Source: Candidatus Poribacteria bacterium (lineage in GTDB: Bacteria > Poribacteria > WGA-4E > WGA-3G). Taken from it: a stretch of DNA of 64,000 bases. The position numbers and the translations under genes were made by a program. The stretch is taken from positions 3,360,001-3,424,000 of the forward strand of contig OZ251518.1 in the NCBI GenBank assembly GCA_965242965.1, in the 5' to 3' direction. Shown here piece after piece: positions 1-27,423 of the stretch (within the stretch, counting starts at the first letter, position 1; every line of letters starts with the position of its first letter). The notes beneath the pieces are model-generated. The model was not told where the DNA came from. It saw nothing but the letters and a program-made list of their open reading frames with translations, and did no database searches.

Positions 1-2871
1 ATAGTCGAATACCGCCGGCGGGATATCCACTACCGTCAAAGAATCATTGTAACGGAGTTGCGTTTTATCTTTGGATAATTCCATCTTCTCGACGCGCCAA
101 TTGAGAGGCGGGGTCTCAATGAGGTTAGGCATCACGTCAAGGGTTTCATAATTGACGTGCAAGTCTGCCAAAGCGCGCCCGATGTTCACAAATCCCCAGA
201 AATCCAGGGTGAAGGGGAGATGCGGCAAGTCGTGCTTGAGGTTGACCTGATATGTCTCGCGGTATTCGGGATGATGCAAAATCGCGTAATTGTAGTGGAA
301 AATGTCCCACTTGGAGATTGTATCGTCGGCGTAATGCGCGCGGAAATGGGACAATGCCCAGTCGGTGATGTTTTCTCGACGGTTTGTGCCATCCTCATCG
401 TAGGTGTAGAAGGGGAAGCACTGCGTTTTTTCGAGAAAATCAATGCACGGAATCTTGTCTGTCATGAGTGCCTGAAACGGTTTGTTGCTGGCAGTGCCGC
501 TGACGCAAATGACGCGATTTTCCTTTTCTGATGCAACCGTGGGAAAGATGGCGGGCATCCCGGCAACCCTTTGGTTCATCAACCTGTCAAAATAGAGATG
601 CATTTTGGTGAATGGACGATACAGGGAAATGCGGCGTTTTTCGGGCGAAAACTCAACCCGCGTTCCCTTTTCCAGTGCCGCTTTCAGCCGGTCTGTCCAC
701 TTAATGTTCCGGCGTTCTTGACTCACAAAATCGTTGACAGCGAGCTGCCTGTCGGTGCGCCGTTCCCAACGAGATGTCTCAGCGTTGTAGAACTCAATCA
801 TCCGCGCCATGTTCGCTGCCAATGTTTCCTGATGGAAATGGTATGCCCATGCATCGCGGTTCGTTGAAACACCGAGGCTGAAAGTTTTGAAAATCGTGCC
901 TCCTACGTCGCCTTTCGTCGCTTTCGCTGACTGGGTGCCCATCGGCAGAAACGTCTCAAAATCAGAACGGAGCCCTTCGGTGAGCCACATCTGGCGCGCG
1001 TTCGGCTGAATCTCGCGCCACTTGACATTGCCGACGTGAACCGTCTCTTCCAAAAATTGGAACGTGTCGGCTTTGGAGAGCTCCGCGGTTTCCTCGTGAT
1101 AGCGGATACGCGCGCTCCCCTCGCGCGGCTGCCCCGTTTTCACGAGGAAACTAATGCTCACCCCGACAGTAATTCCGAAAACGTTGGAATTGCCCGGTTG
1201 TCCCTTGCGGATGTTGCCCCCGAGGTCTAGCACGTAAAGCCAGTCAAATTCCTCAGCGAGACACTGCCGCACGCCATCGAACATCTCGCTGTGGATAAAA
1301 CTATTGTTGGTGATGAGGGCGATGATGCCTTCTTTGCGGATTTTATCCGATGCCCAGCGGAGGGATTTCACATAAGGATCGTAGAGTTTGTTCTTGAGCC
1401 GCGCCGTGGAGGCGGCGACGTAAGTGGCGCGGACGCGGTTATCCACTGCCTCGTGTTGCCGATTCTGATTGTTATCGTTCTCGTTCTGCTGTCCGGCGTT
1501 GTAGGGCGGATTCCCGATGACAACGAACATCGGTGTCTCCTTCTGCTCTCGAACGCGCATCGTGTTTTCCGGTGTGAAATAGGCGAATTCGCCGGTCTGG
1601 TTCGGCGCGTCCATCAGCCCGAAAGTATCAAACGTATCCACGAAGCAGATGTGCTTGAACGGCTCGTATCTCCCCATCTTCTCGTAATAGGCGTGCTCAA
1701 TGTTCATCGTCGCGATGTAGTAAGGCAAAAGCATCACCTCGTTGCAATGCAACTCGCCTTTATATTTCTTGTCGAGCGCGATGCCGGGGATATCCTGCAT
1801 CAAGCGCACGATGAAGTTGCCGGTGCCGACGAAGGGGTCGATGATATGCACTCCTGTATCGGCCAGCGATTTGCCGAAGTGGGTTTTCAGGAGGTGTTGG
1901 ACGCTATTCACCATGAAATCAACGATGGGCTGCGGCGTGTAGACGACCCCATGTCTATCGGCATCCTTGACAGAAAAATCTTGGAAGAAGCGTTGATAGA
2001 GCGTGTTGAGAAAATCTTGCTTCTGGGAATAATCTGTCAGCGTCCGCGCCGTGTTTTCCACCGCTTCGTAGAAGGGTTTGAGTTCGCTGAAAAATTGTGA
2101 GCGGTTGAGTGCCTCCCGGGTCAGCACATCAATCACTTTCTCAATCTCGCGTGCGATGACGTTTCGTCGCGTGAAATCGAGGTTATCAAAGACAGTGCGG
2201 AAGATGTGTTCTGTCATGAGATGCTGCGTGAGCATGCGTTCGACTTCGGCCGCGGGGAGATTCGGGTTAATTGCCTCTTGGCACTGCTGATGGAAATGCG
2301 CGAACGCGTCTCGGAATTCGGGGGTATTCTGGCGTTCGGTTTGGATGAGCGTCTCCAATTTCGCGCCGAGTTCGGGGATGGTATCTTGGAAGGTATTGAC
2401 AGCATCATCCCACTCGGCGAGATTCTCCTCTGTGTAGGTGAAGAAGGTTTCAAGCAACTGGATGAGATCGCGCGGCTCGGTGATGTCCACATCCAAGGCA
2501 AGTGCGCCGTTTTGGTAGAGGATGGCGCGGTGCGGGGTTTGGAAGATGATGTTTTTGGCGGGGTAGCCGATGGCGAATTTCTGCTGTGCTTCAGCGGGTA
2601 GATCATCAAGGAGGTCTTTCGCCTCCCAATGGCCGAAGATGAGTCCGAAGTCGGTGACGATTTCGCCATCAATGCGGATGTGGTTGCCGTTGGGGGTGGT
2701 GCGCGTCTTTTCGCATATCAGCGTGAGGTTGCGCAGGCCGCAGTAGTATTGCAAGAGCGTTTGGAAGGCGACGCGAACGGCACCTTCATGTTGCGCGCCG
2801 AGTTTCGCATAGCGTCCGAGCTCAGCGTAATAGTTTTTTATGGGTTTGTGTGTCGGTTTGATGTTGAGCAT
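1..2871 (-). CDS. Type ISP/IIG-like restriction-modification enzyme (N6-adenine MTase + C-terminal specificity region); 3' end runs off the window
   Basis: Absent from the ORF track because its stop lies outside the window. Read manually from ATG 2871 with GGAGG RBS: MLNIKPTHKPIKNYYAEL...RIDGEIV..GHWEAKD (PD-(D/E)xK-like), LDPFVGTGNF (motif I), VIIGNPPYN (motif IV), LYDPYVKSLRWASD, ITNNSF, LDLGGNIRK. The long + strand ORFs here are in-register antisense shadows. Confidence 0.85.
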   Translation of the reverse strand, partial: MLNIKPTHKPIKNYYAELGRYAKLGAQHEGAVRVAFQTLLQYYCGLRNLTLICEKTRTTPNGNHIRIDGEIVTDFGLIFGHWEAKDLLDDLPAEAQQKFAIGYPAKNIIFQTPHRAILYQNGALALDVDITEPRDLIQLLETFFTYTEENLAEWDDAVNTFQDTIPELGAKLETLIQTERQNTPEFRDAFAHFHQQCQEAINPNLPAAEVERMLTQHLMTEHIFRTVFDNLDFTRRNVIAREIEKVIDVLTREALNRSQFFSELKPFYEAVENTARTLTDYSQKQDFLNTLYQRFFQDFSVKDADRHGVVYTPQPIVDFMVNSVQHLLKTHFGKSLADTGVHIIDPFVGTGNFIVRLMQDIPGIALDKKYKGELHCNEVMLLPYYIATMNIEHAYYEKMGRYEPFKHICFVDTFDTFGLMDAPNQTGEFAYFTPENTMRVREQKETPMFVVIGNPPYNAGQQNENDNNQNRQHEAVDNRVRATYVAASTARLKNKLYDPYVKSLRWASDKIRKEGIIALITNNSFIHSEMFDGVRQCLAEEFDWLYVLDLGGNIRKGQPGNSNVFGITVGVSISFLVKTGQPREGSARIRYHEETAELSKADTFQFLEETVHVGNVKWREIQPNARQMWLTEGLRSDFETFLPMGTQSAKATKGDVGGTIFKTFSLGVSTNRDAWAYHFHQETLAANMARMIEFYNAETSRWERRTDRQLAVNDFVSQERRNIKWTDRLKAALEKGTRVEFSPEKRRISLYRPFTKMHLYFDRLMNQRVAGMPAIFPTVASEKENRVICVSGTASNKPFQALMTDKIPCIDFLEKTQCFPFYTYDEDGTNRRENITDWALSHFRAHYADDTISKWDIFHYNYAILHHPEYRETYQVNLKHDLPHLPFTLDFWGFVNIGRALADLHVNYETLDVMPNLIETPPLNWRVEKMELSKDKTQLRYNDSLTVVDIPPAVFDY

Positions 2872-12901: not shown

Positions 12902-13072
12902 TTTACGTTATGCGATGCTTGCATAAAATTGAGACTGAACCCGGCAAGTTTTTTGTCGTAGAAATTGTTGTTTGTTTTCGGCCCGTTTAGAAACACACTA
13001 AAAATCACTACGCCTCCTTTTCTGGCAGGTGTCTGTGCCCGCCTTCGCGCACCGGACAGGAGAAGAATCTAC

Positions 13073-16000
13073 GTGAAAACACGCAAAACTTTCGCCAAAA
13101 CAGACGTTCGCACCCCTTTACCGAATTTGATTGAGACGCAGCAGCGTGCCTACGATGCCTTTTTGCAGCGTGAGACGTTCCCGCGCCAAGACAGCGGCCT
13201 GGAGGCAGTCTTCCGAGAAGTCTTTCCTATCACTGACTTCAACGAAGTCTCGCGCCTCGAATTCGTCCACTACCAGCTTGGCGAACCGAAATGGACGCTT
13301 GACGAATGCCTCGCCCGCGGTGTCACTTACCAGGTATCCCTCACCGCGCGTCTCCGCCTCGTCGTTTGTGAGAAAAACGCGGCGGACGAAGAACCGCACG
13401 TCGTCGATATCCGCGAGTCCGATGTCTTTCTCGGCGAAGTCCCGCTGATGACAGAAAACGCCAGCTTCATCATCAACGGCAGCGAACGCGTCATCGTGAA
13501 CCAGCTGCACCGCTCACCCGGTGTCATCTTCCTTGAGAAGAAACTTCCGAGCGGACACCGCTCACCCACGGCGCAAATCATCCCTTACCGCGGGGCATGG
13601 ATAGAATTTGAATCGGACTCTAAAGATACGCTTTACGTCCGGTTAAACAAACGTCGAAAGATACCTGCCACCGTCTTCATCCGCGCACTCGGATGGCAGA
13701 CGGATGCAGACATATTGAAACTGTTCGCTGAACCGACGCGCATGATGCTCTCGGGGTGGCGCGTCACAAAAGTGATACTCCCCGAATGCCCACGCCAAAT
13801 CGGTGAACTTTTAACCGCGAAGGAACATCGAGAGTTGGATGACGACTACCCGGGCATGGAAGCTGAAAAACTCTACGAAGTCGTCTCCGTTCCTGACGAT
13901 GCCGAATGCCCTGTTGCTGTCGGCCAGAGGCTCACGGAAACTGAATGGAAGTCCCGCAAAACGCGAAAAGACATCACCTTTGAACGCGTCTGGCGTATCA
14001 CCAAGCATTACCGGCACGACATCCCTTACGCCATCGGCGACATCGTTTCCGATGCAGATTATCGGAAGGCACGGAAGGATTACCCCGGTATTGAGGTAGA
14101 ACCGCACTATCGCGTCACGGCTGTCACAGACAAAGGGTGCCCGCTGGAAGAAGGACAGATGCTGACACTCAGGCAGCGCGCCAGCGAACGTCGGAAGTGG
14201 AAAGGGTTCACCACCGAACGACTCCTACGCATCACGAATATTCTCAATACCGGATGCCCCTTGAATGTCGGCCAGCACCTCTCGTCTACTGAATACACCG
14301 AAATGCTCGGCAGGTATTCTGACGCTTTCAAGGCAGTCGAGATTGAACCGACAGACATCAACGAAACCATTGGTAGTGTCTGCGCTGAACCTATCGCCGA
14401 CCCGAGGACTGACGAACAGTTGGTGACAGCGAATACGCTCCTCACCGAAGCAGAAGTCACACGGCTGCGGGATGCCGGCGTGGAGACGCTCACGGTGTTG
14501 ACACCCGAATCCGCCAAAGCTCTCCGCTTTTTACGGAATACCCTCGAACGCGACAAAGAGGCGGACTACGAGGAGGACATCCGTGCTCGCGGACGGCAGA
14601 GCGAAACGCCAATTCAGGATGTCGCCCTGCTCAAAATCCACTCTGTCCTCAGACCGGGGGAACCTGCTAGTATTGAGGCAGCGCGCCGGCAACTTGAATG
14701 GCACTTCTTCGACGCACCCCGTTATGACTTGGGGACTGTTGGACGCTACAAAGTGAACCAAAAACTGGGACACCTCTCCATATACGGTGAACAGCCCGAT
14801 GAGAAACAGCGCACGTTGCGTCCAGAGGACATCGCGGCGACACTCCGGCATCTGATTGATGTCCAAAATGATCCTGCGTTAACAGACGACTTGGATCATC
14901 TCAGTAATCGTCGTGTGCGCGGCATCGGCGAATTATTGGAGAACCAGTTCCGCATCGGCTTATTCCAGATGCGGCGTGCCACGCGTGAACGCATCTCCTC
15001 CGCCGATATGAGCAACTGTATGCCGCCAATGCTGATTAATCCGAAGCCGCTCATGGTATCGCTGCGCGAGTTCTTCGGTTCAAACCAACTCTCGCAGTTT
15101 ATGCAGCAGGTAAACCCGCTGGACGAATTGACGCACAAGCGGCGCATTTCCGCCATCGGCCCCGGTGGTTTATCGCGCGATAGAGCCACCGCTGCCGTTC
15201 GCGATGTGCATCACACGCACTACGGACGTGTCTGTCCGTTGGAAACACCTGAAGGCCCCTCTATCGGCCTCCTCGTCTCACTTGCGTGTTATGCGCGTAT
15301 CAATCCTTACGGTTTCATTGAGACACCGTACCGCAGAGTGGTGCCCGGCAAGTCTATGGTTGAAACGCAAATTGAATACCTCACCGCCGATAAGGAAGAC
15401 AGAGCCCACATCGCCGCCAAAACCATCCCTCGCGAGATGACACCGGGCGCGAAGCTGGACACGGGTATCCAGCTGCCTGTCCGAAAAGGCGAAGAGGTGC
15501 TGTCCTTGCCCCTGTCCGAGGTAGACTACGTCGGCATCTCGCCATCGCAGATTGTCGGCGTATCCGCGGCTCTCGTGCCCTTTTTAGAGCATGAAGACGC
15601 GAACCGCGCGCTCATGGGCGCGAACCACCAGCGACAAGCCGTGCCGCTTATCACGCCGGAAGCACCGCTCGTCGGCACCGGCATGGAGGCACGCGTCGCA
15701 CAGGACTCAGGGGCATTGTGCATCGCGAAGCGGAGCGGCACCGTCGAAAGCGTCTCCGCCGAAGATATCATCATCCATACCGATGAAACACTTCACGCAG
15801 ATGTCAGTGAACAACACAAGAGTGAGATGGGGTACGACCGGTACGAACTCCACACCTTCAAACGGAGCAACAACGGCACGTGCATCCATCAGCGGCCCAT
15901 CGTCTCTGTCGGCGATAAAGTGGCAGCCGGTGATGTCGTCGCCGATGGGACTTCTACCGATGAAGGCGAACTCGCACTCGGCAGGAACGTTCTCTGCGCC

Positions 16001-17599
16001 TATATGCCGTGGGGCGGACACAACTATGAGGACTCTATCCTCATCAGCGACAGGCTCGTCCAAGATGCCACCTTCAGCTCGATTCATATTGAGGAATTTG
16101 AGGTAGAGGCGCGGGAAACGAAAATGGGACCGGAGGAAATTACGCGCGATATTCCGGATGTTGGTCAACAGCGACTCGCGCAACTCGACGAAGAAGGAAT
16201 CATCCGCGTCGGAAGCCTTGTCAGCGCAGGGAGCATCCTCGTCGGCAAAATTTCACCCAAAGGCGAGAGTGAATACGGACCGGAGGAGAAACTCCTGCAC
16301 ACTATCTTCGGTGAAAAGGTGCGCGAAGTCCGAGACGCATCCGCCTATGTCAAACCGGGCATTGAAGGTGTCGTGATTGATGTCAAAGTCTTCTCACGAA
16401 AACAAGAACCAAGCCGACACTCGCTGCAAAGCTTCGCTGACGCAGACCAGCTCCGTTACGATGCTAAGAAGAAGGAGATAGAGGAGAAGTTCCACGAACA
16501 TCTCCAGGCTATCCGCCGCCGCCGAGACGAAGAAATTCGGAACGCTCTCATCGACTGCGAATTGGCACAGCCGATTTTTAGAGGGGCCACCCCTGAAGCA
16601 ACCGTCGGGCGCGCAGACGAGTTGGACGAGATCGGGGCAGTCCTGGCAGAGAGCGGCGACACCGTGACACACGAACTCCTGCACACACCCGGCGTTGCGC
16701 TCAACGAGATTTACGTCGTTGAATCAAACGTCATGGCATACATCCAGCGCGTTCAAGAAATCGCCGATGAGCGCATCGCCGCCTATACCGAAGAAAAATC
16801 AAGTTCGCTCGAACGGATGGAACTCGGTGACGAACTGAAACCCGGCGTGCTTAAACTGGTGAAAGTCTTTGTCGCAACGACGCGCCATATCTCCATCGGC
16901 GATAAGATGGCGGGCCGCTATGGCAACAAAGGCGTGGTAGCAGAGATTCTGCCCAAAGAGGATATGCCGTATCTCCCCGATGGAACGCCTGTGGACATCG
17001 TGCTGAACCCCCTCGGCGTGCCATCCCGCATGAACGTCGGGCAAATTCTTGAGATTCACCTCGGCTGGGCGTGCCATGCATTGGGCATCCATGTTGAGTC
17101 GCCTGTCTTTGATGGCGCGACAGAGGACGAAATCTTCGAGATGCTCGCCAAGACAGATTTGCCGGAACGCAGCAAGGAGACAGGAAAAAGCATCCTTTAC
17201 GATGGCAGAACCGGGGAAGCGTTCGGACAGGAAGTCACCGTGGGCCATGTCTACTTCCTCAAACTGAACCATCTCGTCGCCGACAAAATGCACGCCCGTT
17301 CTACCGGCCCCTACTCGCTTGTGACGCAGCAGCCGTTGGGCGGCAAGGCGCAACACGGCGGACAGCGGCTCGGCGAGATGGAGGTGTGGGCATTAGAGGC
17401 ATACGGTGCCGCGCACACCTTACAAGAGATGCTCACGCTCAAATCCGATGATTTCATGGGCAGAGCCAAAATTTATGAGTCGGTAGTGAAGGGGCTCAAC
17501 CCCGAATCCCCCGGCACACCCGAGTCTTTCAACGTTCTCGTGCGCGAACTGCAGGGCCTCGGGCTCAGCGTTTCCCTGAATCCGCCTGAAGAAGAATAG
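13073..17599 (+). CDS. rpoB: DNA-directed RNA polymerase subunit beta, with 5-repeat insertion
   Basis: FIINGSERVIVNQLHRSPG, RDVHHTHYGRVCPLETPEGP, NRALMGAN, GDKMAGRYGNKG, HARSTGPYSLVTQQPLGGKAQ, GEMEVWALEAYGA; GTG start after AGGAG. Confidence 0.98.
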   Translation: MKTRKTFAKTDVRTPLPNLIETQQRAYDAFLQRETFPRQDSGLEAVFREVFPITDFNEVSRLEFVHYQLGEPKWTLDECLARGVTYQVSLTARLRLVVCEKNAADEEPHVVDIRESDVFLGEVPLMTENASFIINGSERVIVNQLHRSPGVIFLEKKLPSGHRSPTAQIIPYRGAWIEFESDSKDTLYVRLNKRRKIPATVFIRALGWQTDADILKLFAEPTRMMLSGWRVTKVILPECPRQIGELLTAKEHRELDDDYPGMEAEKLYEVVSVPDDAECPVAVGQRLTETEWKSRKTRKDITFERVWRITKHYRHDIPYAIGDIVSDADYRKARKDYPGIEVEPHYRVTAVTDKGCPLEEGQMLTLRQRASERRKWKGFTTERLLRITNILNTGCPLNVGQHLSSTEYTEMLGRYSDAFKAVEIEPTDINETIGSVCAEPIADPRTDEQLVTANTLLTEAEVTRLRDAGVETLTVLTPESAKALRFLRNTLERDKEADYEEDIRARGRQSETPIQDVALLKIHSVLRPGEPASIEAARRQLEWHFFDAPRYDLGTVGRYKVNQKLGHLSIYGEQPDEKQRTLRPEDIAATLRHLIDVQNDPALTDDLDHLSNRRVRGIGELLENQFRIGLFQMRRATRERISSADMSNCMPPMLINPKPLMVSLREFFGSNQLSQFMQQVNPLDELTHKRRISAIGPGGLSRDRATAAVRDVHHTHYGRVCPLETPEGPSIGLLVSLACYARINPYGFIETPYRRVVPGKSMVETQIEYLTADKEDRAHIAAKTIPREMTPGAKLDTGIQLPVRKGEEVLSLPLSEVDYVGISPSQIVGVSAALVPFLEHEDANRALMGANHQRQAVPLITPEAPLVGTGMEARVAQDSGALCIAKRSGTVESVSAEDIIIHTDETLHADVSEQHKSEMGYDRYELHTFKRSNNGTCIHQRPIVSVGDKVAAGDVVADGTSTDEGELALGRNVLCAYMPWGGHNYEDSILISDRLVQDATFSSIHIEEFEVEARETKMGPEEITRDIPDVGQQRLAQLDEEGIIRVGSLVSAGSILVGKISPKGESEYGPEEKLLHTIFGEKVREVRDASAYVKPGIEGVVIDVKVFSRKQEPSRHSLQSFADADQLRYDAKKKEIEEKFHEHLQAIRRRRDEEIRNALIDCELAQPIFRGATPEATVGRADELDEIGAVLAESGDTVTHELLHTPGVALNEIYVVESNVMAYIQRVQEIADERIAAYTEEKSSSLERMELGDELKPGVLKLVKVFVATTRHISIGDKMAGRYGNKGVVAEILPKEDMPYLPDGTPVDIVLNPLGVPSRMNVGQILEIHLGWACHALGIHVESPVFDGATEDEIFEMLAKTDLPERSKETGKSILYDGRTGEAFGQEVTVGHVYFLKLNHLVADKMHARSTGPYSLVTQQPLGGKAQHGGQRLGEMEVWALEAYGAAHTLQEMLTLKSDDFMGRAKIYESVVKGLNPESPGTPESFNVLVRELQGLGLSVSLNPPEEE

Positions 17600-17696
17600 C
17601 ATCCTTAGCCACGGCACATAGGGTGAGGGCGAGGGCCTGTCCCTCGCCGTGCCGCGGGTTAAGCACACATCCGAATCCATAGGAGAAAAATCCACA

Positions 17697-20600
17697 ATGG
17701 CAACCCCATTTGACAGTATCTCCCTCAAAATCGCTTCGCCGGAGGAAATCAAAGAGTTGGCGAAGCGCACCTGCTGCAAACGCAGAAGCAGCACCGTCGG
17801 CCACGGCGAACCCTTCATCTGCCCAGAAATGCACACCTGCAACTGCGGCGAGGTAAAGAAGGCCGAGACGATTAACTACCGCTCCTTCCGTCCCGAACTC
17901 GAGGGCCTCTTCTGTGAGGCAATTTTCGGGCCGTCCAAAGACTGGGAGTGTAACTGCGGCAAATATAAACGGATTAAGCACAAAGGTGTTATCTGCGACC
18001 GGTGCGGCGTGGAAGTCACGCGCCAGCACGTCCGCAGGGAACGGATGGGCTACATCCAACTCGCATCCCCTGTCTCGCATATCTGGTTCTTCAAGGGTGT
18101 CCCATCGCGCATCGGCGCGTTCTGCGAACTCTCCGCACGGCAGATTGAGAACATCCTCTATTTTGATGCGTTCATGGTGACTGAAGCCGACGAGGAACTT
18201 CAAGAACAAGGCATCATGAAGCCGAACCAACTCATCAGCGAGGCAGAATTCGACCGCTACAAACGCGAATACCGCGGCCGATTTAAGGCAGGTGCCGGTG
18301 GCCAGATACTTGCCAAACGCCTCGCGAGCCTGGACTTGGAAGCAGAGTGCGCGAAAATTGTCAAGGAACTCGAGGAAACGCGCAGCCATCAGAAAAAGGT
18401 GAAACTCACCAAGCAACTCCGACTGATGGAAGACTTTATCAGTTCCGGACAGCGGCCCGAATGGATGATTCTGGATGTGCTGCCTGTCATCCCGCCGGAT
18501 TTGCGTCCCCTCGTCACCTTAGATGGCGGCCGGTTCGCCACCAGCGATTTGAACGATTTGTACCGGCGGCTCATCCATCGGAATAATCGCCTCGCTAAAC
18601 TCATCAAGATGCGCTCTCCCGAAGTCATCTTGCGCAACGAGAAACGGATGCTGCAAGAAGCCGTTGACGCATTCTTTGATAACGGCCGGCACGGCAGACG
18701 CGTGACAGGGCCCGGCAATCGCGAACTCAAATCCCTCTCGCACGTTCTCAAAGGGAAAGTCGGACGGTTCCGTCAGAACCTGCTCGGCAAACGCGTTGAC
18801 TACTCCGGCCGCAGCGTCATCGTCGTCGGCCCGGAACTGGGGATACACCAGTGCGGCATTCCAAAACAGATGGCGGTGGAGTTGTTCAAGCCGTTTATCA
18901 TTGAACGGCTGCAAGCGCATGGCTACAGCGGCACTATCAAACGCGCTAAGGCTTATGTCGAACATATTGACTCTAACAGCCCCGTGTGGGAAGTCTTGGA
19001 AGAAGTCATCGAAGAACATCCGGTGTTGCTCAACCGGCCACCGACACTGCACCGGCTCGGTATTCAGGCGTTCATGCCTGTGTTGGTAGAAGGAAAATCT
19101 ATCAGAATTCCGCCACTTGTCTGTAAAGCGTTTAACGCCGATTTTGATGGAGACCAGATGGCGGTGCATGTGCCGTTAACCGCTGAGGCACAGGCAGAAG
19201 CGAAACTGCTGATGCTCAGCAGCCATAACATCTTGAAGCCATCGCACGGTGGCCCGATTGCCGTTCCCGAACTGGATATGGTGCTTGGGCCGAGTTACCT
19301 GACGAAGACGCTGCCAGAGCACGATGCAGACGCGCAGCTGCTCCACAAGGTTTATACCACCCAAAACGGCGATGCAACGTTACTCGATGAGATTCGCAGG
19401 AAGCCGTGGTATCACCGCCGCTATGCGCATATGGAGGAAGTCATCGCCGCACACGGTGCCGGGCAGCTCAAACTGCACGACAGCGTCCAACTGTTTTTTC
19501 CGGAAAACGGCGCGCCGCGCGAACCGATTCTCACCACCGTCGGCCGAGTGATTTTTAACGAAGTGCTGCCAGCCGAATTGAAGTGGGTGGACGCGCACTC
19601 TGGACAGCGACTTCCGTTTTTCAATGGGGAAGCAGGTGGGAGGCAGCTCTCGGCAATCGTTGAAACCTGTTTCAACACTCCCGAACTCGGCACGCGGGGG
19701 ACTGTAGCACTGCTGGAGAAACTTCAAAAACTCGCGTTTGAATATGCAACGTTGAGCGGCATTTCGCCCGGCATTATTGATTATATCACACCTTCGCAGC
19801 GGGAAGGACTGTTGGCGAAGACAGAGGCAGCTATTGCCAAACTCCGCGCCGCCGCCGCCGCAGATGCCGATACGGAAGAACTCGAGAACCAGCAAATCCA
19901 CTTGTGGTACCAAGCACTGCGAGAGATGGAAAACATCATGTTTTCCAGACTCCCGGAATTGGAAACCCAACTCGTTGAACGGGGTGAAGATGTCAAAGGG
20001 TTCAGTCCGGTGCATATCATGGCGGATAGTGGGGCGCGGGCGCGGAAAAATCCGTTCATGCAAATCAGTGCCGTTATCGGGCTGAAGGCGAAGCAGAGCG
20101 GCGAAATTCTGCTACCACCGATTACCACCTCCTATCGCGACGGGTTAGACGTGATTGACTACTTCAACTCCACCTACGGTTCCCGAAAAGGCTTGGTGGA
20201 TACGGCAATGAAGACAGCGGCATCGGGTTACCTGACGCGGAAACTCGTTGATGTCGCGCAAGACGTGCGCGTCACCGAAGCGGATTGCGGCACGGTCAAC
20301 GGCATCAAAAAATTTGCCACGGAAGGCGGCGAACTCGCTTTTAAAATCAACGGACGCACCGCGACAGAGGATATCCTACATCCCAATACCGGTGAAGTGC
20401 TTGTCAAAGCGGATGAACTCATTTCAGCCGAAGCAGCGGCACTGATTGAAAAGAGTGAGATAAAAAGCGTCAACGTCCGTTCCGTGCTCACCTGCGCAAC
20501 CGAAGACGGTGTCTGCGCCAAATGCTACGGACACGATTTGACGACGAACATGCTTGTCAGTGTCGGTGAAGCTGTAGGTATCATTGCCGCGCAATCCATT

Positions 20601-23600
20601 GGCGAACCCGGCACGCAGCTCACGATGCGGACATTCCACACTGGGGGTGCAGTGGAGGAAGTCTCCGATGCACGCCAGCGTCAAATCCGAGCAAAAGCGA
20701 GTGGCACTGTGAGGTTCCGGGATTTCCATCCCGGCATCACTGTCCACCAAGAGGGCACTCTCTGGATATCCACAGGGCCGGGTAATGCCCCGCTAGGAAA
20801 TCCCCCGAGTGCCAGCGCGGATGCGGAAGATGAAACGCAACGAAAGACCGGGAACCGAGCGAATTTGGACGCGCCTACCTACAAAGTCACGCGCGTCATT
20901 CACGCCGATTGCAAATTACGGAAAGACGAATTGCTCAACGAAAAGCAGTATTCCGAAAACGCGCAGCGTTACAAAGGCTTTGAGACAGTTCCATGGCAGC
21001 ACCGCGTCACCGCTGTTCACGATGATGCCTGTCCCGTGAAAGAGGGCGACAGACTTTCCGCCGCGCAGTGGCGGGAAGCCATAAGTGCATACGGCTTCCC
21101 GCGCTTTGCAACCGAGAAGCGCGAGATAACACACGTCCGCCTATCTACTGTGAACGTTCAACCCGACGATGTGCTCACCGAAGAAGAAATTGAGCAGCGC
21201 GAAGCGGAAATTCGGAACCGATTTGACGGCGAATGGTGCTACCGTATCCCCAAAACCGGCGAGATTTTCAAGTCGGCTCAAGACTTTTTGCCCGGCTTGG
21301 GCATCCCTGTGGAGCCCCTTGAAGATATTGAGGATACAGAAATGCTAGGCGACACGTCAGCTGAAACGGCGGAAGACCTGGCTTCTGCGGAAACATCACT
21401 AGCGAAAGACACCTCTTTTGAACGCGTCTACCGCATCACCGAGCGGACAGATCGGGATTTCCCGTATGCTGTCGGGGATATCGTGGCAGCGGAGGAGATT
21501 GAGCCGTGGCTCACGCCTTTTGAGGCGGCACCGAACCCTGTCTATGTTATTGATGCAAACGCGCCCTGGCATGCAGGCGAAACGTTGACACGCTACCAAT
21601 ACGAGGAAGTGTGTCGCGACTATCGGCCGTTTGAATCCGAAAAAGCGGCGGAGGTGCTGCACCACGTTACGGCAGTGCATCATCCCAAATGCCCGCTCAA
21701 ACCGGGTCAAGATTTGACAGAAGCAGATAAAAACGCTATGCTCGCTCGCTGGTCTGGGTTTGACGTTGAGAGGCTGCGGCACCGTGTAACGCACATCTAT
21801 CATCCGGGTTTTCCACACACACCGGGCTATTTGATGAGCGATGCGGAGGCGAAACGGCTGGGGAGTAAACATCCTGGCTTTGAGACAGAAACATCTCCTG
21901 TCTTTGCAGCGCAATTGGTGATATGGGAGGACGAAGAAGCGGAATCGTCTGATAAAGCGAAACCTATCAAGCCCTATTGCGTGACAGGGATTCATCACCG
22001 CGACTGCCCCCTGGAGGCCGGGGACCTTTTCACTCCCAAGGAGGTAACTGCACAACGCAGGAAATTCCCAGGGTTTGATGTTGAACGCTTCTACGTGATC
22101 CCCAGGGAAAACATCTACGAGGTAACCGAAACTAAGCGAGCCTTTACCGCAAAAGCGTTAGCGGGTTCCAAGAAGAGTTGGCGCATTACTGAAGTGCTTC
22201 ATCCGGCGTGTCAACTTGAAGTTGGCAAGATAGTTTCCGATGCCACGTATAAAAAGACTCGCAAGACCTATCCTAGCACTAATCAAGGGCAGCTCATAAC
22301 GCAGACAGCATTTGAAACATGGGGGGGATCCTTAGCAGCCACGCAAGTGTCTCCGGAGCCTGAGCAGTTTCTCCATCGGGTAACCGAAGCTAAGCCAGCC
22401 TTCACCGCAGAAGCGTCGCCGGAAGCAGAAACGTCGCGAGAATCAGACAGGACCTGGCGCGTCACCGAAGTGTTCAATACAGCATGTCCTTATGAGGTCG
22501 GACAAGAAATCTCCGATGTCGAGTATCGACGAGGCCAAGAGGAATATGGTGATACTCGCGGAGACTTCCTGACGCAGATGGAGTTGGAACACCGGAACGC
22601 CCTCACGACTCAACCTGTTCTGCAACTCTCTGAAACGGAGTTCAAGGTCCTTCGCAAAACGGATCCGACGCTCAAGGATAGGGTGATTACCTCCCGATAC
22701 CGCGTTGTGGACACCTATCACCCAGAGTTCCCCTTTAAAGTCGGCGAGGTCCTGACAGATAAAGATTACAAGCAGTGCCAGAAAGACTTCAGAGGGTTCG
22801 ATGTTGAACATTTCTACGAGGTTACCGCAGACGAACGTGAATTCGTGGAGAGCAGCCCTCAGGAAGCGGAAACCCAACTCATTTCAGACCTCACCGTAGA
22901 GGGGCCGCACTATCGGCACGACGTTGAACCCTCTCCGGTAGCGACATTTGAGAAGCCGCGTCTCAAGAAATTTTGGCGGGTTAATGCAGTCTCCAACCCA
23001 GAGTGTCCGCTGGAGGTTGGTCAAAATCTCTCCGAGGGCGAATATCTGGCGGCACGCGAGACATACAAGGTAATTACCGAAAAACAGAACCCTGATTCAC
23101 GTTTCCTTGAAGGTGATATCCTTGTCCTCTCCGAGCGGGAATACAACGCGCTCATGAAAGGCCATAGGCAAGAAGCTCCGCACACCGTTACCGCCGTGCA
23201 TCACCCAAATTGTCCACTTCAGGTTGGAGCCAAATTGAGCAAAGCGGAATACGAGGGTTTGAGTGCTCACTACCCCGGGTTTGATACCGACGAACCCGCA
23301 CTGCGGATGCATATTGAGATAGAGACTGCGGATGGACATCGGGTGCCGCATCTTATCACGGAAGGTTACTCCTTCTCCATCAAGGAGGGCGATCCCGTCA
23401 AAGTGGAAGACACTCTCGCCGAGCTCCATGAAAAGACAGCGAACATGGATATCGTCGCCGGGATTCCGCGTGTGACAGATCTCTTTGAGGCGCGCCGTCC
23501 TAAACGTGAGGACGCGGCGGAAATCGCCGAGATTGAGGGACGCATTGAGGCAGCAGGCACCAAAGCCGGTGTGCCGACATACCGTATCGTTGATGAGGAA

Positions 23601-24257
23601 CACCAGAGCCGCCTCTACGCCATTCCTGACGAAAAACGGCGCGTCACCGAAGGCGACCGGGTAAAGGCAGGACAACCGCTCACGGACGGTTACCTCAACC
23701 CGCACGATATCCTCAGCATCGGGCGCGTCTTCATTGAAGATGTGCCAATTGATGGTGATGAAGCACTCTGGACATACCTCGTTGAGGAAATCCAAAAGGT
23801 TTACGGTGCACGCGCCATCAACGACAAGCACCTCGAAGCCATCGTCCGCCAGATGACGAGGAAGGTGCGGGTGATAGCACCCGGCGATACGCAGTTTCCC
23901 CATAACAGTGAGGTGCCGCGACAGAAATTCAATGAAGTCAACGCGAAGGTTATTGCTGAAGACGGTAAACCCGCTACCGGCGAACCGATTCTGCAAGGCA
24001 TTAGCCGCGCATCGCTCAGTACCGACAGCTTCATCTCTGCCGCCTCGTTCCAGCAGACGACGAAGGTGCTGACAGATGCCGCTGTCAAAGGGCAGAAAGA
24101 CAAACTCTTCGGATTGAAGGAGAACGTCATCCTCGGTCGCCTCATCCCTGCAGGAAGTGGACTTTCGGATTTCCAGCATTTGGAAATCACGGAAGTTGAC
24201 GCTGACGAAGAGATGGAAGCACCGGAATCCGCCGAGTCATCGTCTGCGGTGCCATAA
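17697..24257 (+). CDS. rpoC: DNA-directed RNA polymerase subunit beta' (~2186 aa; very large trigger-loop insertion)
   Basis: Zn-finger C-C-C-C, GRFRQNLLGKRVDYSGRSV, NADFDGD, GEPGTQLTMRTFHTGG, SAASFQQT, GLKENVILGRLIPAG. Confidence 0.98.
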   Translation: MATPFDSISLKIASPEEIKELAKRTCCKRRSSTVGHGEPFICPEMHTCNCGEVKKAETINYRSFRPELEGLFCEAIFGPSKDWECNCGKYKRIKHKGVICDRCGVEVTRQHVRRERMGYIQLASPVSHIWFFKGVPSRIGAFCELSARQIENILYFDAFMVTEADEELQEQGIMKPNQLISEAEFDRYKREYRGRFKAGAGGQILAKRLASLDLEAECAKIVKELEETRSHQKKVKLTKQLRLMEDFISSGQRPEWMILDVLPVIPPDLRPLVTLDGGRFATSDLNDLYRRLIHRNNRLAKLIKMRSPEVILRNEKRMLQEAVDAFFDNGRHGRRVTGPGNRELKSLSHVLKGKVGRFRQNLLGKRVDYSGRSVIVVGPELGIHQCGIPKQMAVELFKPFIIERLQAHGYSGTIKRAKAYVEHIDSNSPVWEVLEEVIEEHPVLLNRPPTLHRLGIQAFMPVLVEGKSIRIPPLVCKAFNADFDGDQMAVHVPLTAEAQAEAKLLMLSSHNILKPSHGGPIAVPELDMVLGPSYLTKTLPEHDADAQLLHKVYTTQNGDATLLDEIRRKPWYHRRYAHMEEVIAAHGAGQLKLHDSVQLFFPENGAPREPILTTVGRVIFNEVLPAELKWVDAHSGQRLPFFNGEAGGRQLSAIVETCFNTPELGTRGTVALLEKLQKLAFEYATLSGISPGIIDYITPSQREGLLAKTEAAIAKLRAAAAADADTEELENQQIHLWYQALREMENIMFSRLPELETQLVERGEDVKGFSPVHIMADSGARARKNPFMQISAVIGLKAKQSGEILLPPITTSYRDGLDVIDYFNSTYGSRKGLVDTAMKTAASGYLTRKLVDVAQDVRVTEADCGTVNGIKKFATEGGELAFKINGRTATEDILHPNTGEVLVKADELISAEAAALIEKSEIKSVNVRSVLTCATEDGVCAKCYGHDLTTNMLVSVGEAVGIIAAQSIGEPGTQLTMRTFHTGGAVEEVSDARQRQIRAKASGTVRFRDFHPGITVHQEGTLWISTGPGNAPLGNPPSASADAEDETQRKTGNRANLDAPTYKVTRVIHADCKLRKDELLNEKQYSENAQRYKGFETVPWQHRVTAVHDDACPVKEGDRLSAAQWREAISAYGFPRFATEKREITHVRLSTVNVQPDDVLTEEEIEQREAEIRNRFDGEWCYRIPKTGEIFKSAQDFLPGLGIPVEPLEDIEDTEMLGDTSAETAEDLASAETSLAKDTSFERVYRITERTDRDFPYAVGDIVAAEEIEPWLTPFEAAPNPVYVIDANAPWHAGETLTRYQYEEVCRDYRPFESEKAAEVLHHVTAVHHPKCPLKPGQDLTEADKNAMLARWSGFDVERLRHRVTHIYHPGFPHTPGYLMSDAEAKRLGSKHPGFETETSPVFAAQLVIWEDEEAESSDKAKPIKPYCVTGIHHRDCPLEAGDLFTPKEVTAQRRKFPGFDVERFYVIPRENIYEVTETKRAFTAKALAGSKKSWRITEVLHPACQLEVGKIVSDATYKKTRKTYPSTNQGQLITQTAFETWGGSLAATQVSPEPEQFLHRVTEAKPAFTAEASPEAETSRESDRTWRVTEVFNTACPYEVGQEISDVEYRRGQEEYGDTRGDFLTQMELEHRNALTTQPVLQLSETEFKVLRKTDPTLKDRVITSRYRVVDTYHPEFPFKVGEVLTDKDYKQCQKDFRGFDVEHFYEVTADEREFVESSPQEAETQLISDLTVEGPHYRHDVEPSPVATFEKPRLKKFWRVNAVSNPECPLEVGQNLSEGEYLAARETYKVITEKQNPDSRFLEGDILVLSEREYNALMKGHRQEAPHTVTAVHHPNCPLQVGAKLSKAEYEGLSAHYPGFDTDEPALRMHIEIETADGHRVPHLITEGYSFSIKEGDPVKVEDTLAELHEKTANMDIVAGIPRVTDLFEARRPKREDAAEIAEIEGRIEAAGTKAGVPTYRIVDEEHQSRLYAIPDEKRRVTEGDRVKAGQPLTDGYLNPHDILSIGRVFIEDVPIDGDEALWTYLVEEIQKVYGARAINDKHLEAIVRQMTRKVRVIAPGDTQFPHNSEVPRQKFNEVNAKVIAEDGKPATGEPILQGISRASLSTDSFISAASFQQTTKVLTDAAVKGQKDKLFGLKENVILGRLIPAGSGLSDFQHLEITEVDADEEMEAPESAESSSAVP

Positions 24258-24293: not shown

Positions 24294-24469
24294 CGTAGGG
24301 CGAGGGCCTGTCCCTCGCCATGCCGCACAACTACCTGAATCGCGTAGGGCGAGGGCCTGTCCCTCGCCATGCCGCACAACTACCTGAATCGCGTAGGGCG
24401 AGGGCCTGTCCCTCGCCATGCCGCACAACTACCTGAATCGCGTAGGGCGAGGGCCTGTCCCTCGCCATG
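24294..24469 (+). repeat. 49-bp tandem repeat (3.5 copies) built on a GTAG REP
   Basis: CGTAGGGCGAGGGCCTGTCCCTCGCCATGCCGCACAACTACCTGAATCG at 24294, 24343, 24392 and partial at 24441. Confidence 0.95.
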
Positions 24470-24482
24470 CTCCGGAGGATCC

Positions 24483-25937
24483 ATGCGTAAACTCCCCGAA
24501 CTCAACAGTCTCCACTACGGCGATTGCCTTGAAGTCATGCACCCATGGCCCGATGAAACCATCGACCTCGGCTACTTCGATCCCCCTTTCAACAGCAACG
24601 CCAAATATCATCAACTCTACGATACCGGTGACGACAACCGCGGCACGCGCGACGCACAACTCCAAGCCTTTGATGATTCCTGGCGATGGAACGCCACCGC
24701 CGCCGAGCGTGTCGCAAATCTCCTCGATGCACCCGCACATCCCGCGCATCGCGTCATCGAAGCTTTCGCAAAATGGCCCGGCGAAGGCGGCATGCTCGCC
24801 TATCTCACCTACATGGCAGAACGCATTGCTGTCCTGCATCGATTGCTTAAACCTACAGGCAGCGTCTATCTCCACTGCGATGCAACCGCCGCGCATCCAC
24901 TCAAACTCCTCATGGATTGCATCTTCGGACCGGAAAACTTTCGGAACGAGATTGTGTGGTGCTACAAAGGCCCAAGCAATACGAAACGTTGGTTTCCCCG
25001 CAAACACGATACGATCTTCTTCTACGGCAAAACGTCGGAGGCGAAGTTTTATCCCGATGGCGCGCGGGTTGCCTACAGCCGAATCACCGGAACGGGACAG
25101 ACTTCGCTTACGAGAGGCAGTCGGACGCGTGAAGAAGTTGAAGCATTAGAGACGGCTTACGCCGAACGCGGCAAACTCGTGGAGGATTATTGGACAGATA
25201 TTCCGGCAGGTGGGCACATGCCGAGGCATGAACGCTTGGGTTATCCGACACAAAAGCCGCTTGCGCTATTGGAACGCATCATCAAGGCATCCACCGTTGA
25301 AGGCGACATCGTGCTGGATCCGTTTTGTGGGTGTGGCACAACAGTTGCCGCCGCCGATAACCTGAACAGGAAATGGCTCGGCATTGATATCTCCCCGCAC
25401 GCGCTAGAGGTGATTTTGACGAACCGCTTTCCTGGGCGCGCCATTCCCACGAGCGGTATCCCTGCAGACTTTGCGGCCGCCGCGCAACTCGCGAAGGCGA
25501 ATTCCCGCCACTTTGAAGTCTGGGCACTGAATTGTGCATCACAAGGGTTCGCGCCTAACGATACCCAAACCGGCGATGGCGGCATCGATGGCAGAGGCCA
25601 CACACTCCTGCAACCCGATGACTGCGACACCAAACTGGTGCTGGCGCAGGTAAAAGGCGGCAGATTCCATCTGAGCCAACTCCGTGATTTCTTATGGGTG
25701 CTGGAACGGGAGAAAGCGGCGATGGGCGTGTTCATCACCTTGAACCCTGTCACATCACGGAACGCACAGGCGGAACTACTGCGACTTGGCACTGTCACCG
25801 TCGGCACGGAAACATATCCGCGCGTGCAAACCTGGTCCCTCAAGGCGCATTTTGAGGGACAGCGACTGCGGCTGCCAGATATGAACAACCCCTATACCGG
25901 CAAACCTTTACAGCCATCGCTGCAATTGGTTTTGTAA
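24483..25937 (+). CDS. Beta-class N4/N6 DNA methyltransferase with C-terminal Mrr-like nuclease-fold domain (paralogue 1)
   Basis: GDCL, DPPFNS (motif IV), YPTQKP, DPFCGCGTT (motif I), DGGIDG...QVKGG; GGAGG RBS. Confidence 0.9.
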   Translation: MRKLPELNSLHYGDCLEVMHPWPDETIDLGYFDPPFNSNAKYHQLYDTGDDNRGTRDAQLQAFDDSWRWNATAAERVANLLDAPAHPAHRVIEAFAKWPGEGGMLAYLTYMAERIAVLHRLLKPTGSVYLHCDATAAHPLKLLMDCIFGPENFRNEIVWCYKGPSNTKRWFPRKHDTIFFYGKTSEAKFYPDGARVAYSRITGTGQTSLTRGSRTREEVEALETAYAERGKLVEDYWTDIPAGGHMPRHERLGYPTQKPLALLERIIKASTVEGDIVLDPFCGCGTTVAAADNLNRKWLGIDISPHALEVILTNRFPGRAIPTSGIPADFAAAAQLAKANSRHFEVWALNCASQGFAPNDTQTGDGGIDGRGHTLLQPDDCDTKLVLAQVKGGRFHLSQLRDFLWVLEREKAAMGVFITLNPVTSRNAQAELLRLGTVTVGTETYPRVQTWSLKAHFEGQRLRLPDMNNPYTGKPLQPSLQLVL

Positions 25938-25959: not shown

Positions 25960-27423
25960 ATGAAAACGCTTCCCGAACTCAACAGTCTCCACTACGGCGA
26001 TTGCCTTGATGTCATGCACCCGTGGCCCGATGAAACCATCGACCTCGGCTACTTCGATCCCCCTTTCAACAGCAACGCCAAATATCATCAACTTTACGAT
26101 ACAGGTGACGATAACCGCGGCACGCGCGACGCACAACTCCAAGCCTTTGATGACTCTTGGCGATGGAACGCCACCGCCGCCGAGCGCGTCGCAAATCTCC
26201 TCGATGCACCCGCACATCCCGCGCATCGAGTCATCGAAGCTTTCGCAAAATGGCCCGGCGAAGGCGGCATGCTTGCCTATCTCACCTACATGGCAGAACG
26301 CATTGCCGTCCTGCATCGATTGCTTAAACCCACAGGCAGTGTCTATCTCCACTGCGATGCAACCGCGGCACATCCACTCAAGCTCCTCATGGATTGCATC
26401 TTCGGACCGGAAAACTTTCGCCGCGAGATTGTGTGGCAGATGAAATCGCGCTCCGGTTTCAAAAGCCGAGCCGCGAATTGGATTCGGGACCACGATACTA
26501 TCCTCTATTACGTCAAATCGGAGCAGGCGACGTTCAACAAGCAGTTTGAACCCTATTCCGATGAATATGTGGCACGAAGTTTCACGCAGACAGATGCGGA
26601 TGGACGGCGGTATCGTCAACGCGGGAATAAACGCTACTACGAAGATGAAGGCGGTATTCCTTACGGCGATGTCTGGGACGACATCCACTCCTTTCAGACA
26701 GCGACGCGGAGTCAAGAGTATCTGGGGTATCCTACCCAGAAACCGTTGAAACTTCTGGAACGCATCATTCAGGCATCCTCTAATGAAGGCGATATTGTGC
26801 TGGACCCGTTTTGTGGGTGTGGGACAACAGTTGCCGCTGCCGATAACCTGAACCGAAAGTGGCTCGGCATTGATATTTCGCCGCACGCGTTGGAAGTCAT
26901 CAAGTTAAACCGCTTTCAGGGGAGAGCCATACCGACGAGCGGGATTCCTGCCGATTTCGCAGCAGCGGCGCAGTTAGCCAAGGAAAATTCTCGCCATTTT
27001 GAAGTCTGGGCACTGAATTGTGCCTCGCCAGGGTTCGCGCCTAACGATACCCAAACAGGCGATGGCGGCATCGATGGCAGAGGCCACACACTCCTGCAAC
27101 CCGATGACTGCGACACCAAACTGGTGCTGGCGCAGGTAAAAGGCGGCAGATTCCATCTGAGCCAACTCCGCGATTTCTTATGGGTGCTGGAACGGGAGAA
27201 GGCAGCGATGGGCGTGTTCATCACGCTGAACCCTGTCACATCACGGAACGCGCAGACTGAAATCTTGAGACTTGGCACCGTCACCGTCGGCACGGAGACG
27301 TATCCGCGCGTGCAAACCTGGTCCCTCCAAGAACATTTTGAGGGACAGCGGCTGCGATTGCCGGATATGAACAACCCCTATACCGGCAAACCGCTACAAC
27401 CCGCGCTGCAATTGATGTTGTAG
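25960..27423 (+). CDS. Beta-class DNA methyltransferase with Mrr-like C-terminus (paralogue 2)
   Basis: Near-identical to paralogue 1 outside a central ~95-aa segment. Confidence 0.9.
   Translation: MKTLPELNSLHYGDCLDVMHPWPDETIDLGYFDPPFNSNAKYHQLYDTGDDNRGTRDAQLQAFDDSWRWNATAAERVANLLDAPAHPAHRVIEAFAKWPGEGGMLAYLTYMAERIAVLHRLLKPTGSVYLHCDATAAHPLKLLMDCIFGPENFRREIVWQMKSRSGFKSRAANWIRDHDTILYYVKSEQATFNKQFEPYSDEYVARSFTQTDADGRRYRQRGNKRYYEDEGGIPYGDVWDDIHSFQTATRSQEYLGYPTQKPLKLLERIIQASSNEGDIVLDPFCGCGTTVAAADNLNRKWLGIDISPHALEVIKLNRFQGRAIPTSGIPADFAAAAQLAKENSRHFEVWALNCASPGFAPNDTQTGDGGIDGRGHTLLQPDDCDTKLVLAQVKGGRFHLSQLRDFLWVLEREKAAMGVFITLNPVTSRNAQTEILRLGTVTVGTETYPRVQTWSLQEHFEGQRLRLPDMNNPYTGKPLQPALQLML

Follow-up and report, generated by a model that had tools for sequence, protein, structure and literature searches.

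A very large trigger-loop insertion built of small-left-claw units in the RNA polymerase of a Poribacteria family

Introduction

In every cellular RNA polymerase, the trigger loop is the catalytic element that moves, and insertions into it reshape elongation, pausing, and factor access. A 64,000-nucleotide stretch of DNA from a Candidatus Poribacteria bacterium (GenBank assembly GCA_965242965.1, contig OZ251518.1, positions 3,360,001 to 3,424,000 of the forward strand; hereafter the window) carries an rpoC gene whose product, the beta' subunit, has 933 amino acids (aa) inserted into its trigger loop. What is such an insertion made of, where did it come from, and what might it do to the polymerase that bears it? 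An initial annotation, made from the DNA letters, had proposed that the interior of the insertion is an array of about 13 divergent copies of a repeat. Here, we report that the insertion has a base of one sandwich-barrel hybrid motif (SBHM) into which an array of ~830 aa is inserted, that the units of the array are paralogues of bD2, a small domain that every bacterial beta' possesses, and that five more copies stand at the beta-i4 site of RpoB, the beta subunit.

Published trigger-loop insertions are described as SBHM repeats (PMC10895346; bioRxiv 2021.01.27.428476), and the cyanobacterial Si3 of 645 aa is called the largest known. The domain that proves relevant to the present insertion is of a different kind. 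The beta' domains bD2 and bD7 are homologous "small left claw" (sLC) domains, classified as CATH 3.30.60.280 (Alvarez-Carreno et al. 2024, PMC11515920). Extra sLC insertions are described in the same paper as rare, being found only within bD2, bD4, bD5, and bD7 of beta', in Firmicutes and in the group formed by Deinococcus-Thermus, Synergistetes, and Thermotogae.

Results

The rpoC gene occupies positions 17649..24257 (+ strand) as a single open frame of 2202 codons from a GTG, and its product matches TIGR02386 with 1428.7 bits and Pfam Rpb1 domains 1-5. Because a database protein that is 99% identical (P0003) has 2186 aa, translation probably starts at the ATG at 17697, 16 codons inside the GTG frame, which would give a protein of 2186 aa; beta' residue numbers are counted here from the GTG at 17649. 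The N-terminal segment of the trigger loop ends with the motif TFHTGG (20631..20648, +), and the C-terminal segment begins with DIVAGIPRV (23448..23474, +). Between them lies the insertion (20649..23447, +), a polypeptide of 105.9 kDa with an isoelectric point of 5.2, and the 933 codons counted in the initial annotation are exact. In a pairwise alignment with E. coli beta' the insertion is colinear with residues 943-1130, which confirms that it occupies the site known as SI3 or beta'i6. Pfam and NCBIfam searches of the whole RpoB and RpoC proteins named no family within it.

A hidden Markov model (HMM) of the repeat, which was started from regular-expression matches and refined iteratively on RpoB and RpoC, finds 12 significant units in the insertion, with independent E-values from 3e-13 to 5e-20 and one of 1.9e-9. 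Units 1-2 (aa 1077-1113 and 1117-1151; 20877..21101, +; E-values of 5.6e-18 and 4e-17) have a predicted local distance difference test score (pLDDT) of ~90. They are followed by units 3-6 (aa 1261-1283, 1300-1329, 1338-1373, and 1377-1413; 21429..21887, +; 1.9e-9 to 7.8e-19), units 7-8 (aa 1442-1478 and 1511-1545; 21972..22283, +; 1.8e-18 and 1.1e-18), units 9-10 (aa 1602-1637 and 1683-1719; 22452..22805, +; 6.8e-18 and 1e-18), and units 11-12 (aa 1775-1810 and 1844-1880; 22971..23288, +; 2.3e-18 and 5.4e-20).

An AlphaFold2 model of aa 985-1950 (966 aa, built from a 50-row alignment) has a mean pLDDT of 73.5; the units reach ~90, whereas six stretches of linker stay below 50. In this model, each unit is a strand-strand-helix-strand of 37-40 aa with a helix of ~10 residues. 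Units of ~37 aa and their linkers make up ~830 of the 933 residues, and the linkers, which are acidic and poorly predicted, divide the array into approximately six rigid blocks; a spacer with helices at model residues 653-694 separates units 9 and 10. The predicted secondary structure points to two or three further, degenerate units at ~aa 1154-1219 and 1827-1837. Two of these (~aa 1154-1219; 21108..21305, +) show the strand-helix pattern at model residues 170-232 and fall below HMM significance, and a partial unit lies between units 11 and 12. With 12 significant and two or three degenerate copies, the earlier figure of about 13 repeats was a fair one. The array contains no catalytic motif.

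To avoid circularity in the detection of units in RpoB, we rebuilt the HMM from the 12 beta' units alone and searched 57,628 six-frame open reading frame (ORF) pieces of the genome with it. This search recovered rpoC (E = 4e-191) and rpoB (E = 3.5e-44, with five units), and the next ORF had an E-value of 1.2. Therefore, the repeat family is real, is common to both large subunits, and is found nowhere else in the genome. Tandem Repeats Finder detected no DNA-level repeat in the insertion; the units are old and are alike at the protein level only. The 50-sequence alignment shows for each unit a consensus of its own that is conserved from genus to genus.

The two ends of the insertion have a different architecture. 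The first ~40 and last ~55 residues pack into one domain of the model (range 24..945), with its N-terminal half at ~aa 1008-1045 (20670..20783, +; strands at model residues 28-57, pLDDT 86-93) and its C-terminal half at ~aa 1878-1930 (23280..23438, +; strands at model residues 894-942, pLDDT 85-93). Using VIA-align, the two halves superpose jointly on one SBHM of E. coli SI3 (4iqz_A 111-216, corresponding to beta' 1022-1126) with a Z-score of 13.2 and a root-mean-square deviation (rmsd) of 2.0 Å over 87 residues at 22% identity, and 160 of the 710 chains proposed by Foldseek align with the ends at a Z-score of at least 8. The ends are thus one split SBHM, as had been suspected from the sequence. 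The interior is not SBHM, again as suspected: its units are 37-40 aa long and bear a helix, whereas those of E. coli SI3 (948-1022 and 1022-1126) are all-beta and of ~75-105 residues. An SI3 made of SBHM repeats only is therefore not what is found here, the interior being sLC-like units and linkers.

The assignment of the units to the sLC family comes from profile and structure comparisons. For the profile comparison by hhalign, we drew a sample of 300 from the 809 distinct units of SI3 and beta-i4 that were left once 130 native N-terminal copies had been taken out. These units match the native bD2 of insertion-free sister families at 98.0% (E = 2.8e-13, 34 columns), as compared with 0.3% for a reversed control and 27.7% for a single E. 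coli sequence; the match to bD7 is only 0.6%. The native bD2 of the sister families reads IVLEVSDPNCPLKVKQLLTEEEYNEHLSQFPDGF, which is the signature of the repeat itself, and most homologues gave a match to the repeat HMM around residue 161 of beta'. In the window's own genome, the native sLC domain (bD2; ~aa 175-212; 18171..18284, +), which was located by alignment with E. coli 141-181, by a weak repeat-HMM match at aa 194-210, and by comparison with relatives, has lost the CPL part of this signature. A profile of 17 units gave only weak matches to PDB sequences (best E = 0.41); residues 141-174 of beta' from Bacillus, Francisella, and E. coli were among them and were taken as a lead.

For the structure comparison, we made a second AlphaFold model of aa 1254-1416 (163 aa). 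Its unit at aa 1338 (model residues 82-123) overlays, in VIA-align, both native sLC sites of every bacterial beta'. Against E. coli beta' 141-181, the Z-score is 2.8-3.2 and the rmsd 1.7-1.8 Å over 40 residues at 22% identity; against E. coli 1261-1305 and T. thermophilus 1376-1420, the Z-score is 2.8-3.6 and the rmsd 1.3-1.6 Å, with 25-26% identity to Thermus. Including the Bacillus and Mycobacterium (1162-1206) equivalents, the superpositions cover 38-40 residues with rmsd values of 1.3-1.8 Å and Z-scores of 2.7-3.8. Foldseek searches with the 966-aa and 163-aa models returned no match at E ≤ 0.001; in the search of the PDB with the 163-aa model, the top rows were beta' chains with weak E-values. 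A VIA comparison of the 163-aa model to 48,161 representative chains gave nothing above a Z-score of 3.5. The repeat is thus not a new fold; superposition and profile match identify it as a copy of a native domain: the unit is a paralogue of bD2 (E. coli 141-181), an sLC domain of CATH 3.30.60.280.

The second array lies in rpoB, whose open frame (12965..17599, +; TIGR02013, 1606 bits) has its true start ~35 codons inside, judging from a comparison with P0125. Its five sLC-like units, found with the beta'-only HMM (aa 265-299, 312-330, 343-378, 381-417, and 422-454; 13757..14326, +), stand at the beta-i4 site of the lobe, and in a pairwise alignment the array begins exactly at the E. coli beta-i4 start. 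Next to it, the alignment places a canonical BBM2/BEAN unit (~aa 471-512; approximately 14375..14500, +), which the window's RpoB has in common with E. coli and the sister families. All five sister-family RpoBs examined lack sLC-like units and have only the canonical BBM2 at beta-i4. A genome search found the RpoB units in the same 107 of the 111 genomes of the window's family that gave a match to the SI3 array; in one genus, the best matches of the RpoB-unit query lie in beta'-sized frames, and co-occurrence in RpoB is not established for every genus. A complex prediction of the RpoB array with two blocks of the SI3 array scored 0.00 (mark, 0.32), which counts neither for nor against binding. 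In one sister-family genome (G031, locus L023), the RpoB frame is 1675 aa long and two near-identical copies of the BBM2 flank enclose a pattern that resembles HNH by eye (C-x-x-C ... H-H ... C-x-x-C-H); Pfam HNH was not found there at E ≤ 0.01.

How widely is the SI3 array distributed? Among 176 species genomes of Poribacteria, a search with the interior of the insertion matched 107 of the 111 genomes of the window's family and none of the 64 genomes of ten other families; the four family genomes without a match are assemblies that are 81-90% complete. In all five sister-family genomes examined, the beta' frame is 1411-1434 aa long and has an insertion of 198-214 aa with an ordinary two-SBHM look and no units, and beta' frames in families f2 and f3 measure 1411-1455 aa. 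Four genomes of another family of the same order (f4; G058, G061, G062, and G064) have beta' frames of 1494-1691 aa without a match to the SI3 array; therefore, another insertion must account for their length.

Beyond this genome set, a word-indexed protein search with the insertion returned 173 proteins at E ≤ 0.001. Among the 120 matches listed, the named records are six "Candidatus Poribacteria", one sponge (Geodia barretti), and two generic JGI entries. Both flank motifs are present in 118 of these 120, and in those 118 the insertion is 618-1359 aa long, commonly ~640 aa, with 8-16 significant units. The size of the present insertion, 933 aa, is thus as unusual as had been claimed when these lengths are set against the 645 aa of cyanobacterial Si3. 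The 17-unit profile, searched against 1.84 billion representative proteins, matched only 62 at E ≤ 0.001. By BLASTP, 30 of these match RpoB or RpoC of the window and the other 32 match neither; the three of the latter that were examined are LVIVD-repeat proteins aligned at profile positions 3-18 only.

The relatives also show forms of the module that the window does not. In 14 of the 120 listed homologues, a restriction-endonuclease-like domain (PF18741, REase_MTES_1575) is nested in frame within the SI3 array (in P0005, at aa 1384-1475 with a Pfam E-value of 8.8e-15); these are the longest forms of beta', reaching 2605 aa, and the window's protein lacks the domain. The native bD2 site itself carries 2-5 tandem copies of the unit in P0086 (five), P0057 (three), P0055, P0090, and P0117; therefore, the module multiplies in place too. 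Three to five such units also occur in the non-polymerase proteins P0130 (837 aa), P0133 (938 aa), P0146 (452 aa), P0135, and P0140. The first three of these carry TPR repeats at the C-terminus, and the N-terminus of P0130 is a weak match to the nuclease-like HSDR_N_2. No unit-bearing non-polymerase protein is encoded in the window's own genome.

The reading frame of the insertion contains no stop codon, and the GC content is even along rpoC (0.53-0.56). Nine public sequencing runs hold at least half of the sampled words of the insertion, and three runs, each from a different study, have contigs that together cover it and cross both junctions (for example, 20514-20668 and 23429-23700). Together with the 107 of 111 family genomes, these contigs indicate that the insertion is not an assembly artefact, a possibility that the initial annotation had raised. 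The junctions, GG|AVEE and ANM|DIVAG, lack the Cys or Ser nucleophile and the His-Asn pair of an intein, and no Hint or intein Pfam family matches at E ≤ 0.1. Three runs each have one contig in which 21763 is followed directly by 22454, so that 690 bases of the array (230 codons, an in-frame loss) are missing, and a second joint, 20706 to 20922 (215 bases), occurs in two runs. Since reads were placed at 90% likeness, another organism is a likely source of such joints, and that from 21763 to 22454 may come from a co-occurring relative or a strain with a shorter array.

To measure selection, we used Nei-Gojobori counts against two species of the same genus. The ratios of nonsynonymous to synonymous substitution rates (dN/dS) for congeners 1 and 2, the latter being rough, are 0.18 and 0.14 in the core flanks, 0.29 and 0.19 in the units, 0.35 and 0.09 in the SBHM ends, and 0.51 and 0.52 in the low-confidence linkers. 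Thus, the units are under purifying selection of near core strength (0.19-0.29 as compared with 0.14-0.18).

Insertions at the SI3 site are known to modulate the access of Gre factors, as the initial annotation noted. That question is moot here, as the domains of GreA/GreB and DksA were not detected in the genome: neither GreA_N nor the DksA/TraR zinc finger was found in this 94.7% complete assembly. Across the phylum, the C-terminal GreA_GreB domain reached its cut-off in one of the 176 genomes, and there only in a 1346-aa frame, as compared with 9 of 14 controls. The few weak GreA/GreB matches in the phylum lie in frames of 1300-1450 aa.

Two paralogues (24369..25937 and 25960..27423, both +) immediately follow rpoC, each of which encodes an N6/N4 DNA methylase (E = 1e-43 and 4e-47) fused to an Mrr_cat restriction-endonuclease domain.

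Discussion

Taken as a whole, these data are best explained, in our view with moderate confidence, by a hyper-expanded, lineage-specific SI3 made of sLC units that derive from bD2 and form an arm coupled to the trigger loop. What is new is a trigger-loop insertion from a native polymerase domain other than SBHM, copied into RpoB also and confined to one family of Poribacteria. Its origin by copying of the native bD2 in the common ancestor of that family is strongly inferred. In the ancestor, the native bD2 would already have had the signature D-P-x-C-P-L...L-T-E-E-E-Y, as it still does in the sister families. It would then have been copied to two surface sites, one in rpoB and one in the neighboring rpoC, and multiplied there, and an ordinary two-SBHM SI3 of ~200 aa, such as the sister families have, would have been cut down to one SBHM.

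The likeness to known insertions is partial. E. coli SI3 (beta'i6, 943-1130) has the same insertion point, a similar SBHM base, and a similarly acidic character, but it consists of two SBHMs in 188 aa whereas the Poribacteria insertion is one SBHM split by an array of ~830 aa. The Si3 of cyanobacteria and plastids (645 aa, with eight or nine SBHM/HABAS domains depending on the source) is likewise very large and likewise a recursive insertion into an SBHM, and its hosts, like Poribacteria, are without Gre and DksA (PMC10895346; domain searches here); Qayyum et al. 2024 (PMC10895346) connect this Si3 with the lack of such factors. However, it is built of SBHM throughout whereas the Poribacteria array is built of sLC, and Poribacteria beta' is not split. 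At beta-i4 (SI1), E. coli has two tandem BBM2/BEAN units at the site of the RpoB array and shares one canonical BBM2 with it, but the units added in Poribacteria are sLC-like. Native sLC domains are single copies at fixed sites (bD2 and bD7), with which the Poribacteria units share a fold of ~40 aa and, in the case of bD2, profile homology. Among the extra sLC insertions reported in the Results of PMC11515920, none lies within beta or the trigger loop and none forms an array of 5-16, and its main text, as distinct from its supplementary tables, does not mention Poribacteria. A search by title and abstract, whose scope did not extend to the catalogues of Lane & Darst 2010 and Iyer et al. 2004 or to the supplements of PMC11515920, found no paper describing this insertion.

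Several observations weigh against the explanation that we favor. The 163-aa model is only moderately confident (mean pLDDT, 75.1), and the structural Z-scores, at most 3.8, are low, as expected for a unit of 40 residues, and would not suffice by themselves; because of this, the assignment of the units rests mainly on the profile comparison. The dS to congener 2 is near saturation (1.0-1.4), which is why the ratios for that species are rough. Among the public runs listed as containing the insertion, none is an RNA run. The lack of Gre and DksA is phylum-wide and extends to families with a small SI3; therefore, it predates the expansion of the array and does not explain it. Finally, the length of the insertion varies more than two-fold within the family and its linkers evolve fast, so that a tolerated appendage fits as well as a tuned one.

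With respect to function, the array would form a mobile, acidic arm of 106 kDa tethered to both strands of the trigger loop; with such a tether, the arm must shift or pivot each time the loop folds or unfolds. The arm may lie along the jaw, the lobe, and the rim of the secondary channel, beside the beta-i4 array, and may set elongation rate, pausing, and intrinsic cleavage, as E. coli SI3 and cyanobacterial Si3 do (PMC2939025, PMC10895346). By analogy with these systems, we tentatively propose that an acidic arm coupled to the trigger loop tunes elongation, pausing, and cleavage, a role that is possible rather than probable.

The strongest competing explanation is that the array is a by-product of duplication at permissive loops that has no regulatory role and has been kept only because it folds harmlessly. 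Such accretion would fit a unit that has multiplied at three permissive sites, beta'-bD2, beta-i4, and SI3 (including the tandem native-site copies of P0086 and P0057), and it would equally fit the 618-1359-aa range of insertion lengths, the linker dN/dS of ~0.5, and the nuclease-like PF18741 domains nested in 14 of the 120 listed relatives. It accounts less well for an array that is kept in 107 of 111 family genomes, the four misses being incomplete assemblies, for purifying selection on the units that is close to that on the core, and for a consensus that is conserved unit by unit across genera. In addition, tests of SI3 in other systems have shown it to matter for function (PMC11077087, PMC4227799). 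On balance, we regard accretion without a role as unlikely.

The beta-i4 and SI3 arrays may also act jointly as a moving gate, specific to this lineage, above the secondary channel and the downstream-DNA channel, one that couples catalysis to unit-bearing partners and stands in for the missing Gre and DksA factors. The TPR-fused unit proteins (P0130, P0133, and P0146) could dock on the arrays by like-with-like contacts. We mention this gate as a speculation to which we give little credence.

Less probable still is that the units are ordinary BBM2/BEAN modules (CATH 3.90.105.10) that have spread into SI3. BBM2 was our first label for the unit since Opalka et al. 2010 (PMC2939025) place one to six tandem BBM2 repeats at beta-i4, the site of the RpoB copies; the same paper identifies Thermus beta'i2 as SBHM. 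The two modules are both small alpha/beta folds with a G-x-x-L-T/S helix cap, and the units match canonical beta BBM2 at a borderline hhalign value of 55.6% (E = 1.2e-4, 25 columns). However, assignment to the RNA polymerase BEAN family goes with an hhalign similarity above 70% to canonical beta-i4 BBM2 and to beta'-bD5 in Alvarez-Carreno et al. 2024 (PMC11515920), and the units match the BEAN module of beta' at ~860-900 at 6%, while canonical beta BBM2, as a positive control, matches that module at 99.3% (E = 3.4e-20). The match of the units to native bD2 is far stronger, the repeat HMM gives the canonical BBM2 of the window's RpoB no more than 0.8 bits, and the T-G-D/E motif, which PMC11515920 assigns to the BEAN domains of RNA polymerase, occurs in the canonical unit but not in the repeat consensus. 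The structural rows listed for the units contain no beta chain (the BBM2 references being E. coli beta 225-343 and Bacillus beta-i5), although this listing cannot exclude the fold. The label was dropped on the two hhalign values, and the repeats do not score as the ordinary SBHM or BBM2 units that the initial annotation had allowed for.

The initial annotation had also suggested that the recurring His and Cys of the unit bind metal or sense redox state. On this reading, an array of H-P-x-C-P-L loops with metal-binding or redox-active sites would tune the trigger loop. The two residues are among the better conserved positions, and the insertion has 12 Cys and 34 His. Across the sample of 300 units, however, the Cys column is 70% C, 16% L, 5% F, and 3% I, and the His column is 76% H, 17% D, and 4% N. 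There is only one His and one Cys per unit, and 4 of the window's 12 beta' units lack the Cys (having F, F, F, or W/A instead). The column pattern fits a hydrophobic residue that is buried and a residue in a turn, rather than a pair of ligands, and the Cys is inherited from the single native bD2, in which the sister families have Asp at the His position. We therefore consider a metal or redox array highly improbable.

That the insertion is an artefact, a pseudogene, an intein, or a mobile gene outside mature beta', as its extreme size and the nuclease-like domain in some relatives might suggest, can be dismissed for practical purposes given one stop-free frame of even GC with no DNA-level repeat, independent contigs that bridge the junctions, conservation in 107 genomes (many of them on a single contig), boundaries colinear with E. 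coli SI3, and junctions with neither intein residues nor a matching intein or Hint family.

An SI3 expanded with sLC units of bD2 origin thus remains the explanation that we favor. This family of Poribacteria breaks both statements that have been made about trigger-loop insertions, namely that they are SBHM only and that 645 aa is the largest. It offers a case of domain accretion in an essential enzyme in which the donor is visible, as the signature-bearing native bD2 of the sister families, and in which the before-state survives, as an SI3 of ~200 aa in the same order. In these uncultivated associates of sponges, the insertion is a natural test of how much mass is tolerable on a trigger loop.

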